From: Escherichia coli
Lineage (GTDB): Bacteria > Pseudomonadota > Gammaproteobacteria > Enterobacterales > Enterobacteriaceae
Direction: 5' to 3' (one strand)
DNA length: 64,000 nt
Assembly (NCBI RefSeq): GCF_016903815.1
Contig: NZ_CP069973.1
Under the pieces are notes generated by a model. The model was not told where the DNA came from. It saw only the letters and a list, made by a program, of their open reading frames with translations, and did no database searches. The position numbers and the translations under genes were made by a program. This document shows positions 12,677 through 64,000 of the stretch, one piece after another (the first letter of the stretch is position 1; each line of letters begins with the position of its first letter).

Positions 12677-13996
12677 TTAACCGTGTTTATTTTTCAGTTC
12701 AAAGCGTGGTGAGACCAGACCATACAGTGTCCAACCGAGGAAGGTCACGATGGAACCGTATAGCATGGCTTCTTCCCCGGATGAGTACAGCGCATAAAAG
12801 CTGTACATCGCGCCAACAAAAGCAACAAAGTTTGCAACTTTCGCTTTTGAGGGGGGCACATTAGCGACCTTCTGAATAATGACTAATGCCGCCATTGACA
12901 GAATATACGGAATGATATTGGTCACCACGGCCAGGTTAACCAGCACGTTGAACTGACTGTTTAGCGACGGGCTAATCGTCATCAGCGCCAACCCGCTCTG
13001 GATAATCACAATGGTCAACATTCCCTGCACCGGTGCATCCACTTTGGTTACACGGGAGAAAATTTTAGGGAAGTAGCCTTCATCAGATGAAGATTTAAAC
13101 ACCTGGGCAATGGTGAACTGCCAGCCAAGCAGCGAACCGCAGCAGGACATCACCATCAGCGCCATAATGACTTTACCCACTTCTGGCGTGAACATCTGTG
13201 CGAAGGCCAGGCCAAATGGTGCCGTTGAATTTGCCAGCTCCATATTAGGCACAATCCCTGCAATCACGTTGGTGGAGACGATATAAATCACCGCCGCACC
13301 TAACGTACCGCCGAGTACCGCGATTGGCACATTACGTTCCGGGTTTTCCACTACATCAGTATTCGCACACGCAGACTCCAGACCAAGAAAAGCCCACAGC
13401 GTCATAGCGATGGAAGAACCTACCGCACTGAAGAACGGTGCATGATGCGGATTCCAGGAATCAACGTAAAGCGTCGGGCTAAACCAGAACCAGCCGATAA
13501 CGCACAGGCCTACCACCGGAATAATGACCCCCCACACGGTAATGCTACTGATTTGCCCGGTAATGCGCGCACCACCAAAGTTAGCCACGGTACAAATCCA
13601 CAGCACCCCGATGGTCGCAAGACCAATCTGCACTGGCGACAAACTCGCGCCGAGCAGTTCGGTGCCGTAACCAACCGCCGAAATAGCAATCGCGACGTTA
13701 GCAATTAGCAGTGAGACGCCGTAGGTATAGTTCGCCATAAAGTTCCCGGATTTACCGAAAGCATACTCCGCATAACCGCCCATACCGCCTGATTTACGGC
13801 TGAACATACCGCATTTTGCGAATGCCCATGCCAGTGCCATTGAGCCTACGGCTGTCACCAGCCAGGAAATAATTGAGATTGTCCCGACTTCGGCAAGCTT
13901 TGTCGGCAGCATGATGATACCGGAGCCCATCATGTTGACCATCGTCAGTATGGTTAACTGAACGACGCCCATTTTGTTCGATTTAGCCTGACTCAT
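12677..13996 (-). CDS. potE: putrescine-ornithine antiporter
   Basis: 439 aa polytopic APC-family transporter; its start overlaps the speF stop (ATGA). Confidence 0.95.
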   Translation of the reverse strand: MSQAKSNKMGVVQLTILTMVNMMGSGIIMLPTKLAEVGTISIISWLVTAVGSMALAWAFAKCGMFSRKSGGMGGYAEYAFGKSGNFMANYTYGVSLLIANVAIAISAVGYGTELLGASLSPVQIGLATIGVLWICTVANFGGARITGQISSITVWGVIIPVVGLCVIGWFWFSPTLYVDSWNPHHAPFFSAVGSSIAMTLWAFLGLESACANTDVVENPERNVPIAVLGGTLGAAVIYIVSTNVIAGIVPNMELANSTAPFGLAFAQMFTPEVGKVIMALMVMSCCGSLLGWQFTIAQVFKSSSDEGYFPKIFSRVTKVDAPVQGMLTIVIIQSGLALMTISPSLNSQFNVLVNLAVVTNIIPYILSMAALVIIQKVANVPPSKAKVANFVAFVGAMYSFYALYSSGEEAMLYGSIVTFLGWTLYGLVSPRFELKNKHG

Positions 13997-57507: not shown

Positions 57508-58230
57508 TTATCGCGATGATTTTCGCTGCGCTATCAGGGTAAATTTATAGTCATCAGTATTAAAAGCGTTGCGGCTATATTCAAACACCCGGCCATCAAC
57601 TAAATATCCACGCGATACTTTTTCAAGAATCGGCTTAGACTGGCTGATATTAAGCAGACGGCTCATCTCTTCGGTTGGCATCAGAGGAATGATTTCCTGT
57701 TCGCTACGATCGATAACCATTTTCTTCACTTCTTCAATAAAGTGATATTTCGAATTTTCCATAACCTGCCAGGTGAGATCCGGGAACAACGCAAGCGGCA
57801 TCCAGGTTTCTTCCAGCGCCATTGGCTTTTGCTTGCGATAGCGCACGCGCTTCACATGCCACACACGATCCTGCGCGATGATTTGTAGCTGTTGCTGAAG
57901 AAAATCGTCAGCCGGAATCACTTCAAATATCAGAACTTCACTGTGTGTATCGACGTGACGGTCCGACAGTTTTTCATCAAAACTGGTTAACTGAAAAATA
58001 TCGTAATTGACCCGCTCTTCTTTGACGTAAGTCCCGCTGCCCTGAATGCTTTCGAGGATCTGTTGCTCGACTAGCTGGCGCAAAGCCTGACGCACCGTAA
58101 CCCGGCTGACGCCAAACTTTGTTTGCAATGCCGATTCGGTAGGTAACGCATCGCCAGGTTTTAGCTCGCCACGCGCAATTTGCTCACGAATGCGATCGGC
58201 AATCTGTCGATATAAGGGTTTCCGTCCCAT
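57508..58230 (-). CDS. mngR: GntR/HutC-family transcriptional repressor MngR (FarR)
   Basis: 240 aa; N-terminal winged helix-turn-helix (VSRVTVRQAL) and UTRA effector domain. Confidence 0.9.
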   Translation of the reverse strand: MGRKPLYRQIADRIREQIARGELKPGDALPTESALQTKFGVSRVTVRQALRQLVEQQILESIQGSGTYVKEERVNYDIFQLTSFDEKLSDRHVDTHSEVLIFEVIPADDFLQQQLQIIAQDRVWHVKRVRYRKQKPMALEETWMPLALFPDLTWQVMENSKYHFIEEVKKMVIDRSEQEIIPLMPTEEMSRLLNISQSKPILEKVSRGYLVDGRVFEYSRNAFNTDDYKFTLIAQRKSSR

Positions 58231-58345
58231 TATTTAGCATCTCATTAATACGAATTTAGCCATTATGCACGATAAATTCATCCTGTAAATAATACAAATA
58301 CAATACAAATAATTTCAATCAAGTGAAATTGATCACATAATAGTA

Positions 58346-60316
58346 TTGTTTTATCGGGCACACTGGCGCGACTATAAAAACGATCAAGTGAGGATCATGA
58401 TGAACCTGACGACTCTGACCCACCGCGATGCGTTGTGTCTGAATGCGCGCTTTACCAGCCGTGAAGAGGCCATCCACGCGTTGACTCAACGTCTTGCTGC
58501 TCTGGGGAAAATTTCCAGTACTGAGCAATTTCTGGAAGAAGTGTATCGCCGTGAAAGCCTTGGCCCGACCGCCTTAGGTGAAGGGTTGGCTGTGCCGCAT
58601 GGTAAAACTGCTGCGGTAAAAGAAGCAGCGTTTGCCGTTGCGACACTGAGTGAGCCGCTTCAGTGGGAAGGCGTGGATGGCCCGGAAGCGGTTGATTTAG
58701 TGGTGTTGCTGGCGATTCCCCCCAATGAAGCGGGTACTACGCACATGCAACTGCTGACAGCGCTGACCACGCGCCTGGCGGATGATGAGATACGGGCGCG
58801 TATACAGTCGGCGACGACGCCTGATGAATTGCTTTCGGCGCTGGATGACAAGGGAGGCACGCAACCCTCAGCTTCTTTTTCCAACGCGCCAACTATCGTC
58901 TGCGTAACGGCCTGCCCGGCGGGTATTGCTCACACCTATATGGCTGCGGAATATCTGGAAAAAGCCGGACGCAAACTCGGCGTGAATGTCTACGTTGAAA
59001 AACAAGGCGCTAACGGTATTGAAGGGCGTTTAACGGCAGAGCAACTCAATAGTGCAACCGCCTGTATTTTTGCGGCTGAAGTCGCCATCAAGGAGAGTGA
59101 GCGTTTTAACGGCATTCCCGCGCTTTCAGTGCCTGTTGCCGAGCCGATTCGCCATGCTGAAGCGTTGATCCAACAAGCACTGACCCTCGAGCGTAGCGGT
59201 GAGACGCGTACCGTACAGCAAGATACGCAACCGGCGAAAAGCGTCAAAACGGAGCTGAAACAGGCGCTGTTAAGCGGGATCTCTTTCGCCGTGCCGTTGA
59301 TTGTCGCGGGGGGTACGGTGCTGGCGGTTGCGGTATTACTGTCGCAAATCTTCGGGCTACAAGATCTATTTAATGAAGAAAACTCCTGGTTGTGGATGTA
59401 CCGCAAACTGGGCGGCGGGATGCTCGGGATTTTGATGGTGCCGGTGCTGGCAGCCTATACCGCCTATTCGCTGGCAGATAAACCGGCGTTAGCGCCGGGC
59501 TTTGCGGCTGGACTTGCCGCCAACATGATCGGTTCCGGGTTTCTCGGCGCGGTCGTTGGCGGATTGATAGCCGGTTATCTGATGCGCTGGGTGAAAAATC
59601 ACTTACGTCTTAGCAGTAAATTCAATGGATTCCTGACTTTTTATCTCTACCCGGTGCTCGGTACGTTGGGAGCGGGCAGTCTGATGCTGTTTGTGGTGGG
59701 GGAACCTGTCGCCTGGATCAATAACTCGCTTACCGCCTGGCTGAACGGTCTGTCAGGAAGTAACGCGCTGTTGCTGGGTGCCATTCTCGGTTTTATGTGT
59801 TCCTTTGACCTTGGAGGGCCAGTGAACAAAGCCGCTTATGCATTCTGCCTGGGCGCAATGGCGAACGGCGTTTACGGCCCGTATGCCATTTTCGCCTCCG
59901 TCAAAATGGTTTCGGCATTTACCGTAACCGCTTCCACGATGCTCGCACCGCGCCTGTTTAAAGAGTTTGAAATTGAGACCGGGAAATCCACCTGGCTGTT
60001 AGGGCTGGCAGGTATTACCGAAGGGGCGATCCCGATGGCGATTGAAGATCCGCTGCGGGTTATTGGTTCGTTTGTGCTGGGCTCTATGGTAACGGGCGCT
60101 ATTGTCGGCGCGATGAATATCGGCCTTTCGACACCCGGTGCCGGCATTTTCTCGCTCTTTTTACTTCATGATAATGGCGCGGGCGGTGTTATGGCGGCAA
60201 TTGGCTGGTTTGGTGCGGCATTGGTGGGGGCTGCAATCTCGACTGCAATTCTCCTGATCTGGCGGCGTCACGCGGTTAAGCATGGCAACTATCTGACTGA
60301 TGGCGTAATGCCATAA
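58346..60316 (+). CDS. mngA: PTS 2-O-alpha-mannosyl-D-glycerate-specific EIIABC component
   Basis: About 650 aa with EIIA, EIIB ([15 protein letters not shown]) and EIIC domains; alternative in-frame ATGs at 58397 and 58400 follow a GAGGA motif, so the start is uncertain. Confidence 0.85.
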
Positions 60317-60333
60317 ACAAAAAGGAAACGACG

Positions 60334-62967
60334 ATGAAAGCGGTATCTCGCGTTCACATCACCCCGCATATGCACTGGGATCGGGAGTGGTATTTCACCA
60401 CCGAAGAGTCACGCATTCTGCTGGTCAATAATATGGAAGAGATCCTGCGCCGACTGGAACAGGACAACGAATACAAATATTACGTACTCGACGGGCAAAC
60501 GGCGATCCTCGAAGATTATTTCGCGGTGAAACCGGAAAACAAAGAGCGCGTGAAGAAACTGGTAGAAGCCGGTAAGTTGATTATCGGCCCCTGGTATACC
60601 CAGACCGATACCACGATTGTTTCTGCGGAATCCATCGTCCGTAATCTGATGTACGGAATGCGTGACTGCCTCGCGTTTGGCGAGCCGATGAAAATAGGTT
60701 ATTTACCAGATTCCTTTGGCATGTCCGGGCAACTGCCGCATATTTACAATGGATTTGGCATTACCCGCACCATGTTCTGGCGCGGATGTTCTGAGCGCCA
60801 CGGTACTGATAAAACCGAGTTTTTGTGGCAAAGCAGTGATGGTAGCGAAGTGACGGCGCAGGTGCTGCCGCTGGGCTACGCCATCGGTAAGTACTTACCT
60901 GCCGACGAAGACGGATTACGCAAACGTCTCGACAGTTATTTTGACGTGCTGGAAAAAGCGTCAGTAACCAAAGAAATTTTATTGCCGAATGGTCATGATC
61001 AGATGCCATTGCAGCAAAATATCTTCGAAGTGATGGAGAAACTTCGCGAAATTTATCCTCAACGAAAGTTTGTGATGAGCCGCTTTGAAGAGGTATTCGA
61101 GCAGATTGAAGCGCAGCGAGATAATCTGGCGACCCTCAAAGGTGAATTTATCGATGGCAAATATATGCGCGTGCATCGCACCATCGGTTCCACGCGCATG
61201 GATATCAAAATTGCCCACGCGCGTATTGAAAATAAGATTGTTAATCTGCTGGAACCGCTGGCAACACTGGCCTGGACTTTAGGTTTTGAATACCACCACG
61301 GCTTGCTGGAGAAAATGTGGAAAGAGATCTTAAAAAATCATGCCCACGACAGTATCGGTTGTTGTTGCAGTGACAAAGTTCATCGCGAAATCGTCGCCCG
61401 CTTCGAACTGGCTGAAGACATGGCGGATAATCTGATTCGTTTCTACATGCGCAAAATTGCCGATAACATGCCACAGAGTGATGCCGACAAACTTGTGCTG
61501 TTTAACCTGATGCCCTGGCCGCGGGAAGAAGTGATCAACACCACTGTGCGGCTGCGCGCTAGCCAGTTTAATTTGCGGGACGATCGCGGTCAGCCTGTAC
61601 CGTATTTTATTCGCCATGCCCGTGAGATCGATCCTGGCCTAATCGATCGGCAAATCGTTCATTACGGTAATTACGATCCCTTTATGGAGTTTGATATTCA
61701 GATCAACCAGATTGTCCCTTCTATGGGCTATCGCACGCTTTATATCGAAACGAATCAGCCTGGCAACGTGATTGCGGCAAAAAGTGACGCTGAAGGGATA
61801 CTGGAAAATGCTTTCTGGCAAATTGCGCTCAATGAGGATGGAACGCTACAACTGGTAGATAAAGACAGCGGTGTGCGCTATGACCGGGTATTGCAAATTG
61901 AAGAAAGCTCTGATGATGGTGATGAATATGACTATTCACCTGCAAAAGAAGAGTGGGTAATTACTTCGGCGAATGCGAAACCGCAATGCGAGATTATTCA
62001 TGAGGCCTGGCAGAGCAGGGCTGTTATCCGCTATGACATGGCGGTGCCGCGTAATCTACAAGAACGCAGCGCACGGCAATGCACGGGTAGAGTAGGGGTG
62101 GAGTTGGTTGTCACTCTGAGTGATAACAGCAGGCGCATTGATGTGGTTATCAACCTTGATAACCAGGCTGACGATCATCGCCTTCGCGTCCTGGTCCCTA
62201 CACCTTTCAACACCGACAATGTTCTGGCCGATACCCAGTTTGGTTCGCTAACGCGCCCGGTGAGCGACAGTGCGATGGATGTCTGGCAACAAGAAGGCTG
62301 GAAAGAAGCGCCTGTTCCGGTGTGGAATATGCTCAACTATGCTGCCTTACAGGAAGGGCGTAACGGTCTGGCTGTCTTTAGCGAAGGGCTACGTGAATTC
62401 GAAGTCATCGGTGAAGAGAAGAAAACCTTTGCCATTACGTTGCTGCGTGGCGTGGGCTTACTGGGGAAAGAAGATCTGCTTTTAAGGCCTGGACGTCCTT
62501 CGGGTATAAAAATGCCGGTGCCCGATTCACAATTACGTGGCTCCTTTAGCTGCCGTCTGAGCTTATTTAGTTATACAGGTACGCCTTCGACCGCCGGTGT
62601 AGCCCAGCAGGCGCGTGCATGGCTGACGCCAGTACAGTGTTACAACAAAATCCCGTGGGATGCGATGAAGTTAAATAAAGCCGGATTCAATGTGCCGGAA
62701 AGCTATAGCTTGCTGAAAATGCCCCCTGTGGGATGCCTGATTAGCGCTCTTAAAAAAGCGGAAGACCGGCAAGAAGTGGTATTGCGACTGTTTAATCCGG
62801 CAGAATCGACAACCTGTGAGGCAACTGTCGCGTTCAGTCGTGAGGTGATTTCATGTACGCAAACGATGATGGATGAAAGCATCAGCACAGCGGAAAGAGA
62901 TAATTTAAAGGAACTGGGGGCATTTTTACCGGGGCAGTCACGGACATTTAGCTACCGCCTTGGCTGA
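60334..62967 (+). CDS. mngB: alpha-mannosidase (mannosylglycerate hydrolase, GH38)
   Basis: 877 aa; recognised as MngB. Confidence 0.95.
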
Positions 62968-63007
62968 TTATTGCGCTAAAAGTGTATCTAAGGGGGGCAA
63001 TAATTTC

Positions 63008-63033
63008 AGGCCATCTTCGGATGGCCTGAGATT
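63008..63033. terminator. terminator hairpin between mngB and the convergent rtcB-like gene
   Basis: caggccatcttcggatggcctg, a perfect 9 bp stem with tetraloop. Confidence 0.5.
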
Positions 63034-63111
63034 GTTGATAAACAAGTTTGTTAGCTTACGCAGATACCAGATTTGACCTGCGTGAGAACCGCAGGCCATT
63101 TATCATTTCAG

Positions 63112-64000
63112 TTACCCCTTAAACGTTAACCACGGTCGAAATCTGACCGCTGGCTGAATTAATCCGGCTTCTTGTTGGGCTTCGATAACCGGACCAATAT
63201 CTTTATAAGCCGCTGGCGCTTCTTCAAGACGTCGTTCTTCACGCAATGTGACGCATTGCCACGGCAGCGTTGACTCTTCAGTCGCGCTTGAGCGCATGGC
63301 CTGTCGACGCTGGCTGCGTCCTGCTCCGTGACTGCATGACCACAGCCACTCCGGGTTGCCGCAACCGACTGCAAGCCACGAATAATCGCCCATTGAACCG
63401 GGGATTAATGCCAGATCGCCCACTCGTGCCGGTGTTGCACCTTTGCGATGAATATTCATTTCATGCTCGCGAAGGATGATGTTATGTGGTACATCCACCA
63501 CCAGATGCGAATTGTCCTGATGAAAGAGATTGGCGAGACATACGCGCACCATTTCGGCAATTGTGACGCGATTTAACCACGCGTAACGCGCCGCCATTCC
63601 TATCGCTTGTAGATATTCCTCCGCCAGTCCGCCTGCCAGACCATATAACCCGCTTTGTGGATGTTTATGTCCGGTGGGCCATTCAGCACGGGCGCGATCC
63701 ATCCAGCGTCTTCCGACGTAAAAGCCAACATCTCGCGATCCACTGTGGATCATCACCACAATATCGCCTGTTTTCAGCCCTTGTTGCCAGGCTACATGGC
63801 GATCAACCACGCTATCAACGACCTGAAGTTCAATAAAATGATTACCTGAACCCGGCGTACCCAGACAAGGATCGCGGAGTAATGCGCGGTCCGTTGCCAG
63901 CAGGGCGGGTGGGGCATAACGCGAATGACTGTTATGCTCGTTAAGCCCAATGCAGCGGTCAATCTCTTGTACCATTCGGGGGATATTCGTGCGTGTCCAG
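63112..64000 (-). CDS. RtcB-family RNA ligase paralogue, C-terminal part; the N-terminus lies beyond the window end
   Basis: Translation contains RtcB signatures GSGNHF, HSGSR, IPGSMG and CSHGAGR and ends ...RPWLTFKG, parallel to canonical E. coli RtcB as I recall it; the minus-strand frame is open to the window edge. Confidence 0.75.
   Translation of the reverse strand, partial: WTRTNIPRMVQEIDRCIGLNEHNSHSRYAPPALLATDRALLRDPCLGTPGSGNHFIELQVVDSVVDRHVAWQQGLKTGDIVVMIHSGSRDVGFYVGRRWMDRARAEWPTGHKHPQSGLYGLAGGLAEEYLQAIGMAARYAWLNRVTIAEMVRVCLANLFHQDNSHLVVDVPHNIILREHEMNIHRKGATPARVGDLALIPGSMGDYSWLAVGCGNPEWLWSCSHGAGRSQRRQAMRSSATEESTLPWQCVTLREERRLEEAPAAYKDIGPVIEAQQEAGLIQPAVRFRPWLTFKG

Follow-up and report, generated by a model that had tools for sequence, protein, structure and literature searches.

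A third RtcB paralogue of Escherichia coli stands alone behind a conserved, putatively start-masking leader

Introduction

RtcB ligases are the main RNA 'sealing' enzymes, and two arrangements of their genes are understood in bacteria: rtcBA under the control of RtcR, and rtcB2-prfH, which serves colicin E3-cut ribosomes. Here we describe an rtcB-like gene, which we call rtcB3, at the edge of a 64,000-nucleotide stretch of the Escherichia coli contig NZ_CP069973.1 (the window), together with the leader that precedes it. The label RtcB3-type is used here for the third E. coli paralogue and does not refer to the Myxococcus protein of the same name.

Results

An RtcB gene at the window edge

The window closes on a single open frame on the minus strand (63112–63999), in which 295 codons run from the window edge, where the frame is still open, to a stop codon at 63112–63114; the other two minus-strand frames over the same interval hold many stops. 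All four RtcB motifs (GSGNHF, HSGSR, IPGSMG and CSHGAGR) are found in the translated fragment. The original prediction that the window edge encodes the C-terminal part of an RtcB-like protein on the minus strand was thus correct, with 295 residues and a stop codon in the window. By megablast, many complete E. coli genomes contain the same DNA (100% identity) under the annotation 'RtcB family protein', and the fragment is identical to the 3′ 888 nucleotides (nt) of a gene in E. coli strain 7/2 (NZ_CP023820.1, 12213–13100 of the locus L001). The full gene is 1398 nt long and encodes 465 residues; strain 7/2 shares this protein, WP_001522602.1 ('RtcB family protein'), with many other genomes. Since its 5′ part and the leader lie past the window edge, both were read from the identical genome of strain 7/2; a window coordinate equals the L001 coordinate plus 50899, and the rtcB3 start therefore falls at window-equivalent 64509. 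The features that carry the analysis are the following.

63112–64000, minus strand: 3′ two-thirds of rtcB3, residues 171–465 and the stop codon, from the open frame and the motifs
Inside the window part of the gene, minus strand: catalytic residues N223/H224, H255, H342 and H394, placed by alignment
Window-equivalent ~64510–64617, minus strand: leader as far as the −10 box, the −35 box lying just outside (to ~64640); L001 13611–13740

A protein cluster (P0004) holds 189 database copies of the E. coli protein annotated with 398 residues and lacking the first 67. This shorter form is probably a start-site mis-call, because an AGGA Shine-Dalgarno (SD) sequence and the full-length alignment to orthologues both support the 465-residue start.

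Relation to RtcB1 and RtcB2

RtcB3 is 30% identical, with 18% gaps, to the RtcB of K-12 (RtcB1, 408 residues) and 29% identical to an intact E. coli RtcB2 (379 residues, from the rtcB2-prfH operon of sequence type (ST) 131), which is shorter by 86 residues. RtcB1 and RtcB2 themselves share 28% identity in the present comparison, the figure also given in PMC9304027. Against the two NCBIfam models of short RtcB proteins, which carry curated cut-offs, RtcB3 scores 167.9 bits for TIGR03073 (release_rtcB, release-factor-H-coupled; cut-off 271.8) and 203.6 bits for NF007153 (cut-off 407), reaching neither. Strain 7/2 moreover has its own loci for the other two paralogues: an intact rtcA-rtcB-rtcR locus between malT and glpR, and rtcB2/prfH, present only as frameshifted, truncated remnants between yafP and pepD (L011 40942–41496), with the prfH remnant ~510 kb from rtcB3. 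On these sequence comparisons, that is, because of the low identities, the sub-cut-off scores and the separate loci in the same strain, RtcB3 is a genuine third E. coli RtcB paralogue, equally distant from RtcB1 and RtcB2. The pattern of the strain 7/2 remnants is similar to that of ykfJ/prfH in K-12; they align to K-12-type genomes in two to three pieces, so the deletions differ.

A PrfH partner had been expected just beyond the window, which would make rtcB3 one half, RtcB2, of a module with PrfH for the rescue and repair of ribosomes. Pairing of E. coli RtcB paralogues with PrfH is known (PMC9304027 and PMC9223846), and the four motifs seen in the window are common to all RtcB proteins. However, the neighbours of rtcB3 are mngB and, past a 590-bp AT-rich spacer, a divergent LysR gene; no prfH adjoins it, and no PrfH-like open reading frame (ORF) is annotated in the spacer in strain 7/2. 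This neighbourhood and the model scores refute the PrfH-coupled identity, to which, given also the 29% identity to a genuine E. coli RtcB2, the 86 additional residues and the strain's own rtcB2/prfH remnants at yafP-pepD, we attach hardly any weight.

Still closer to nil is the chance that rtcB3 is a relocated canonical rtcB, the stress-induced gene of an rtcBA-rtcR operon. Such a gene would belong to the same Pfam family and carry the same catalytic residues, as rtcB3 does, but the 30% identity to K-12 RtcB, the intact rtcA-rtcB-rtcR locus at malT-glpR in the same genome and the fact that neither rtcA nor the divergent rtcR (encoding a sigma-54 activator with a CARF domain) adjoins rtcB3 refute this identity. 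The further prediction, of a paralogue distinct from canonical rtcB, is borne out by the alignment to the K-12 gene and by the separate canonical locus.

One sentence in PMC9304027 mentions a 'third RtcB' in ~60 E. coli strains, with no locus, context, regulation or activity. That text holds no sequence to compare, and the gene meant is most probably rtcB3. In the literature searched, we found no paper characterising RtcB3 beyond that sentence; a P. aeruginosa 'RtcB' virulence paper concerns PA4583, which is of the RtcB1 type and not of the RtcB3 subfamily.

Protein family and active site

The Pfam RtcB model (PF01139) matches residues 63–465 over its positions 7–426 of 426 with an E value of 5.6e-95, and solved RtcB structures match at E values of 3e-43 to 9e-35, the best being Thermus TTHA1785, Pyrococcus horikoshii RtcB and human RTCB; such values lie well outside what chance would give. 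The alignment to P. horikoshii RtcB is one continuous stretch (query 40–464 against residues 30–480) in which D104, C107, N223/H224, H255, H342 and H394 align with P. horikoshii D95, C98, N202/H203, H234, H329 and H404. Following the established literature, we take P. horikoshii D95, C98, H203, H234 and H329 to form the two-metal site and H404 to be the histidine that carries guanosine monophosphate (GMP). The metal-ligand positions are thus matched by D104, C107, H224, H255 and H342, while H394, in the motif SCSHGAGR, aligns with the nucleophilic histidine (P. horikoshii H404, E. coli RtcB H337). The metal-site residues, N223 and H394 also have their counterparts in E. coli RtcB and do not vary among 15 orthologues. 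Judged by these alignments, RtcB3 is a full-length RtcB with all metal-binding residues and the nucleophilic histidine in place, and nothing in its sequence suggests an inactive enzyme. As a member of this family it is very probably an RNA 3′-phosphate/5′-hydroxyl ligase. No PADLOC-DB 2.0 defence-system model matches the protein at E ≤ 0.01.

Relative to the archaeal and human enzymes (P. horikoshii PH1602, human RTCB), RtcB3 has the same full-length 'long-form' architecture and all active-site residues align. However, the similarity is low (phmmer ~124–151 bits), the bacterial host lacks protein-spliced tRNA introns, and no archease or complex subunits adjoin RtcB3.

Genomic context

The remaining features of the locus lie to the left of the gene or at its 3′ end.

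60334–62967, plus strand: mngB, the left neighbour, placed by the ORF list and by how the identical genome is annotated, with mngR and mngA further left
62968–63111, no strand: spacer between the convergent genes mngB and rtcB3
63007–63028, no strand: perfect 9-bp hairpin with a TTCG loop, CAGGCCATC TTCG GATGGCCTG, read from the sequence
63117–63155, minus strand: deletion-scar segment, the last ~39 coding bases of rtcB3, the only piece kept in ~400 genomes

The spacer is context-specific, because homology with the rtcB3 modules of another lineage (ST648) ends at 63117. Its hairpin may serve as a shared transcript end or stabiliser of mngB and rtcB3; the terminator scan did not call it, as there is no T-run on either side. 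Beyond the window edge, the 590-bp spacer and the divergent LysR gene are followed by cobO, genes for a class I fumarase, a dicarboxylate symporter and a DUF4387 protein, an AtuA-like gene, the genes for methylaspartate ammonia-lyase and glutamate mutase (glmE/L/S), two hypothetical genes and cydA.

In K-12, mngB is followed after 846 bp by cydA, whereas in strain 7/2 ~15.9 kb separate the two genes. The original prediction of a strain-specific insertion where K-12 has the cydA upstream region holds insofar as the gene is absent from K-12; the single insertion does not, since the sucD-cydA interval is a mosaic. In this hot spot (window 57508–64000; L001, L003 and L004) mngRAB, rtcB3, the LysR and methylaspartate genes and the hut operon are combined differently in different lineages. 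In ST648-type genomes, which match the window query only from position 218 onward, rtcB3 directly follows sucD, mngRAB is absent and the gene faces the hut operon. In strain 042, sucD is followed by the 39-bp remnant of rtcB3 (window 63117–63155) and then by the LysR and methylaspartate (glutamate fermentation) genes.

The ST405 and ST648 copies are homologous over a block that begins ~4 nt inside the stop codon and ends ~108 nt before the ATG; just past that end they share, more weakly, a −35-like box. Because homology is confined to this block, the conserved unit is, as read from sequence, a module of ~1.5 kb that comprises promoter, leader and gene and moves as one. The same comparisons bear on whether rtcB3 is a functional part of the neighbouring methylaspartate/glutamate fermentation island, or is regulated by LysR, as its position here, adjoining the island and divergent from the LysR gene, could suggest. 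ST648-type strains have the gene and its leader beside the hut operon without LysR or methylaspartate genes, strain 042 keeps the island and LysR with rtcB3 deleted, the homology between contexts ends ~108 nt before the ATG apart from the weaker −35-like box, and orthologues in other genera have unrelated neighbours. Membership of the island or control by LysR is thus very unlikely.

Distribution and selection

By megablast, the rtcB3 region is matched in 690 of 5426 complete E. coli genomes and the whole gene in 289 (~5%), always as one chromosomal copy of the whole unit; the lineages that bear it include ST405 and ST648. A further ~400 complete genomes hold only the 39-bp scar, a shared deletion remnant that adjoins sucD or the LysR gene, the partial matches listed covering only query positions 218–256 (window 63117–63155). 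Canonical rtcB is present in 4857 of the 5426 genomes and missing from the other 569.

This pattern raises the question of whether rtcB3 is a remnant that is decaying towards loss and at present has no function in E. coli: the gene is kept in only ~5% of genomes, and the scar is all that is left in ~400. Against this, lineages 4% apart keep the frame of 465 codons intact, with a ratio of nonsynonymous to synonymous substitution (dN/dS) of 0.18 between the ST405 and ST648 alleles (dS 0.12), and of 0.08 relative to an 86%-identical relative on a metagenome contig that also has a hut neighbour. All catalytic residues are invariant, and among the matches listed all retained copies are annotated as full-length. 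Retained copies of rtcB3 are under purifying selection, and we consider decay without function very improbable.

Relatives in other bacteria

The database holds thousands of relatives of the full-length protein. The nearest named ones, of 462–470 residues and 55–67% identity, come from Beta- and Gammaproteobacteria and include Burkholderia, Ralstonia, Variovorax, Janthinobacterium, Chitinimonas, P. aeruginosa, Xenorhabdus, Pectobacterium, Gilliamella and Xanthomonadales; relatives at 40–48% identity are found in Massilia, P. chlororaphis, Nostocales, Oscillatoriales and Myxococcota. In nine contexts from other genera, judged by precomputed Pfam hits, there is no shared neighbour, and rtcA, rtcR, prfH, archease and Ro are absent. 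The neighbours there include a nuo operon with a methyltransferase, NmrA/LysR, a dimethyl sulphoxide-reductase-type operon, a reverse transcriptase, FIST and an Rhs toxin. RtcB3 stands alone, without a conserved protein-coding neighbour in any genus examined.

Several single contexts are worth recording. In Pseudogulbenkiania (L018 1–4689) and Ralstonia (L016 1–218) the orthologue lies beside an Rhs toxin followed by a small ORF, or beside a large reverse-transcriptase gene, which hints at conflict-system neighbourhoods, although the pattern is not conserved. In the bee-gut bacteria Gilliamella (Gammaproteobacteria) and Snodgrassella (Betaproteobacteria) the leaders are almost identical and the proteins equally related (L028–L034, L043 and L067), and these sequences therefore suggest a recent transfer of the whole module between the two. 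A tandem glycine riboswitch of Variovorax (Rfam RF00504, 57 and 40 bits; L017 7828–8035, minus strand) lies beside the downstream neighbour of the rtcB3 orthologue and is unrelated to it.

Promoter and architecture of the leader

The leader was read from L001 and 80 other loci, the loci at which promoter and leader are conserved lying within L004, L005, L007, L008, L014 and L016–L094 as well as L001, and its architecture was derived from the 200 nt upstream of orthologues. Simple promoter and terminator scans gave nothing above chance at rtcB3, and the promoter call rests on −35 and −10 boxes that are conserved in position across genera. These form a position-fixed sigma-70-like promoter with a −35 box of TTTACA or TTGACN, a spacing of 17 nt and a TAnAAT-like −10 box, and read TTGTAA-17-TACACT in E. 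coli. The sigma-54 consensus TGGCAC-N5-TTGC, compared by eye with the conserved upstream block, did not fit, and we infer that rtcB3 is not controlled through RtcR and sigma-54. Between the −10 box and the first hairpin most proteobacterial loci carry a GC-rich block (CCGCGC at L027 2905–2915; ACGCGCG in E. coli at L001 ~13706–13712), which may, by analogy, correspond to the discriminators of promoters under stringent control.

The leader of ~100 nt contains a hairpin, P1, then a variable GC-rich hairpin, P2, often followed by a U-run, and finally a start region that is complementary to the P1 loop. The stems of P1 differ by lineage: CUUUCC/GGAAAG in E. coli, CCUUCCU/AGGAAGG in Burkholderia, CUUUCUUG/CAAGAAAG in Variovorax, GCGCGC/GCGCGC in a Xanthomonad, GAGAC/GUCUC in Nostocales and CCUCU/AGAGG in Undibacterium. 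The loop of 12–17 nt always contains the heptamer GCUGCUG, which lies 61–76 nt before the start codon in most Beta- and Gammaproteobacteria and cyanobacteria. Searched against Rfam 15, neither the E. coli leader nor the leader position of five other loci gave a match at E ≤ 1.

Pairing between the P1 loop and the start region

In proteobacteria the partner of the loop lies just before the AUG, as in Burkholderia (CGCUGCUG/CAGCAGCG-AUG), Comamonas (UGAUGCUG/CAGCAUCA), Massilia (UUGGCUGCU/AGCAGCCAA), Xanthomonadales (CUGCUGAAA/UUUCAGCAG) and P. aeruginosa (GUGCUGCU/AGCGGCAC), and, as the first four of these pairs exemplify, the loop and start flanks covary between lineages. In cyanobacteria and one myxobacterium the partner spans the start codon; examples are GGCUGCUGAACCCA with AUGGAGUUUUCAUGCAGCC in Nostocales and GGCUGCUG with AUG-CAGCAGCC in Oscillatoriales. 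In E. coli the start-region partner of GCUGCUG is UCAGGACAGC, and the pairing is GCUG-CUGA with UCAG-GA-CAGC, in which the bulged GA completes the AGGA SD sequence. The loop-start duplexes computed with RNAduplex have a median energy of −15.8 kcal/mol, and in 42 of the 80 leaders the duplex is stronger than with 95% of shuffled start regions. In most of the 37 proteobacterial leaders folded singly, the minimum free energy (MFE) structure has the motif paired with the start region. When more 5′ sequence is included for E. coli, the MFE fold forms P1 and P2 instead, at nearly equal energy (−29.6 versus −29.2 kcal/mol), and because these alternatives are so close the modelling suggests that the P1/P2 fold and the motif-start fold are mutually exclusive.

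As alternatives to a plain MAFFT alignment, helices were searched for in each sequence against shuffled nulls, structural alignments were padded with N, and covariance models were built. With an unbiased null, the best-helix score of P1 averages 5.54 versus 3.69 on shuffled flanks, with p ≤ 0.05 in 21 of 46 leaders, and the N-padded alignment, which is fitted to the structure, holds compensatory changes in eight of nine P1 pairs. In the model-fitted alignment of 39 leaders, 82.6% of the P1 and P2 cells are paired versus 60.5 ± 1.2% in shuffles, double (compensatory) changes occur in all 20 pairs, and covariation is 0.563 compared with 0.234 when shuffled and 0.10–0.19 when the partners are slid. 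The second covariance model, comprising P1 and P2, was run over 871 kb: all 47 of its matches at E < 0.1 lie directly 5′ of RtcB3-type genes, including those of E. coli (23.5 bits) and P. aeruginosa, and there is none in the window, the K-12 loci, rtcBA or rtcB2-prfH. A match of the first covariance model in an lfhA pseudogene (L011 36168–36268) was a false positive, as it lacks the motif and disappears with the second model.

Several observations weigh against a structured leader that masks the start of a ligase gene. The structural alignments were fitted to the proposed structure, the per-sequence z-scores of P1 are modest (median −1.1) and the E. coli leader folds only slightly better than its shuffles (z −1.88). 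RNAalifold on the plain MAFFT alignment predicts an empty structure, because the stems are out of register there, and a fixed-register test of the loop-start helix is only weakly above its controls, since lineages differ in register by one CUG unit. The loop-start pairing of E. coli is broken by the GA bulge and is not individually significant (p ~0.06), and most Xanthomonadales leaders are without a clear P1. Nor does pairing alone explain the invariant GCUGCUG core, so something else probably reads the P1 loop or its partner. On the protein side, the ligase chemistry of RtcB3 is predicted from family membership.

Some of these points would suit a simpler account, in which the conserved upstream block is a promoter or operator acting at the level of DNA, or a chance CTG/CAG low-complexity repeat, and not a functional RNA structure. 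The motif core is indeed a short trinucleotide repeat, partners slid by three columns still pair in 50–56% of cells, RNAalifold on the MAFFT alignment returns nothing and the E. coli-specific statistics are weak. However, the stems change wholly between lineages yet stay complementary (CUUUCC/GGAAAG, GCGCGC/GCGCGC, GAGAC/GUCUC and CCUCU/AGAGG), the partner of the loop follows the start codon into the coding sequence, as in cyanobacteria with AUGCAGCC, the spacing between motif and start is conserved, and the covariance model is specific. We therefore regard an explanation at the level of DNA or of chance as unlikely, while granting it more weight than the other alternatives considered above.

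Complementarity of the loop to 16S rRNA

In all lineages the P1 loop is the exact complement of 7 nt of 16S rRNA, positions 519–525 (K-12 rrsH, L101 272–1813), in the universally conserved strand of the 530 loop, whose sequence (519–530) is CAGCAGCCGCGG. The complement reaches 10–12 nt in cyanobacteria, one Xanthomonad, an alphaproteobacterial metagenome-assembled genome and one myxobacterium. That of positions 519–529, in Nostocales and the alphaproteobacterial genome, was reached by 19 of 2000 shuffles, and that of 519–530, in the myxobacterium, by five of 2000, while the 8-nt complement of the E. coli loop is not significant. This complementarity may be due to chance; we put it forward as a hypothesis that is suggestive in cyanobacteria and the myxobacterium. 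Two further coincidences were seen: the start-region partner CAGCAGCC equals 16S 519–526, and the Massilia loop also complements 16S 348–357.

Discussion

The best explanation of the locus, to which we give a probability of about 0.75, is that rtcB3 encodes an intact, stand-alone third RtcB ligase and forms with its start-masking structured leader a module of ~1.5 kb. Transcription from the sigma-70-type promoter would yield an mRNA with a structured leader of ~100 nt, in which the loop of the 5′-terminal hairpin P1, with its GCUGCUG, would pair with the ribosome-binding site and start codon region. Since the loop is complementary to the start region, the default fold would hide the rtcB3 start site, and some signal would open the leader. 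We lean towards repression of translation by this loop-start pairing, relieved by a signal, with less assurance than we have in the ligase itself. The enzyme would seal breaks in RNA that have 2′,3′-cyclic phosphate or 3′-phosphate and 5′-hydroxyl ends, following the standard RtcB route with Mn2+ and guanosine triphosphate (GTP): His394 would be guanylylated, GMP transferred to the RNA 3′-phosphate (RNA-3′pp5′G), and the 5′-hydroxyl would then attack.

What signal would open the leader can be framed more speculatively. The leader could be a self-resetting RNA-damage sensor controlling RtcB3, a proposal that we consider improbable, slightly more so than the DNA-level account. The invariant GCUGCUG loop would keep the start region shut until RNA damage opens the leader, either through an endoribonuclease cut in the exposed loop or through exposed or fragmented 16S rRNA competing for it. 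RtcB3 would then be made and would seal broken RNAs, among them its own leader in the cleavage version, thereby switching itself off.

In its general design the leader is similar to translational-repression leaders and the expression platforms of riboswitches, which likewise have an upstream single-stranded segment complementary to the SD or start codon and alternative, near-isoenergetic folds. In the rtcB3 leader, by contrast, the sequestering element is an invariant heptamer in a hairpin loop that is conserved across several phyla, and the leader has no match in Rfam.

Comparison with the two understood arrangements places RtcB3 beside both. With RtcB1, encoded in rtcBA under RtcR and sigma-54, it shares the PF01139 family, the same Asp, Cys and His ligands and nucleophilic histidine and, to judge from sequence, the GTP- and Mn2+-dependent sealing of 2′,3′-cyclic-phosphate/5′-hydroxyl ends. 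It differs in being only 30% identical and longer (465 versus 408 residues), in having no RtcA cyclase or RtcR/CARF regulator adjacent but a sigma-70-like promoter and structured leader instead, and in being accessory (289 versus 4857 of 5426 genomes). RtcB2-PrfH, which repairs colicin E3-damaged ribosomes (PMC9304027 and PMC9223846), is like RtcB3 in that both are accessory paralogues with all catalytic residues, and RtcB3, too, may be dedicated to a single class of damaged RNA. Unlike RtcB2, which is 29% identical and has 379 residues as against 465, RtcB3 falls below the family cut-offs, occupies another chromosomal site, has no adjacent PrfH and coexists with rtcB2/prfH remnants.

As a protein, then, RtcB3 is an ordinary member of the RtcB family; what is new is a stand-alone ligase with a conserved, predicted start-masking leader. 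It represents a third arrangement, in which the only conserved companion of the ligase is a structured leader that takes the place of RtcR or PrfH. For annotation this calls for caution: 'RtcB family protein' in E. coli covers three paralogues that are not interchangeable, and coupling to PrfH should not be assumed. The RtcB3 module is widespread, occurring in Beta- and Gammaproteobacteria, cyanobacteria and myxobacteria and, within E. coli, in the clinically important lineages ST405 and ST648. Its leader offers a handle on which RNA damage RtcB3 answers, and on how damage may be sensed without RtcR. If the sensor proposal were true, it would amount to a protein-independent coupling of an RNA repair enzyme to RNA damage across several bacterial phyla.

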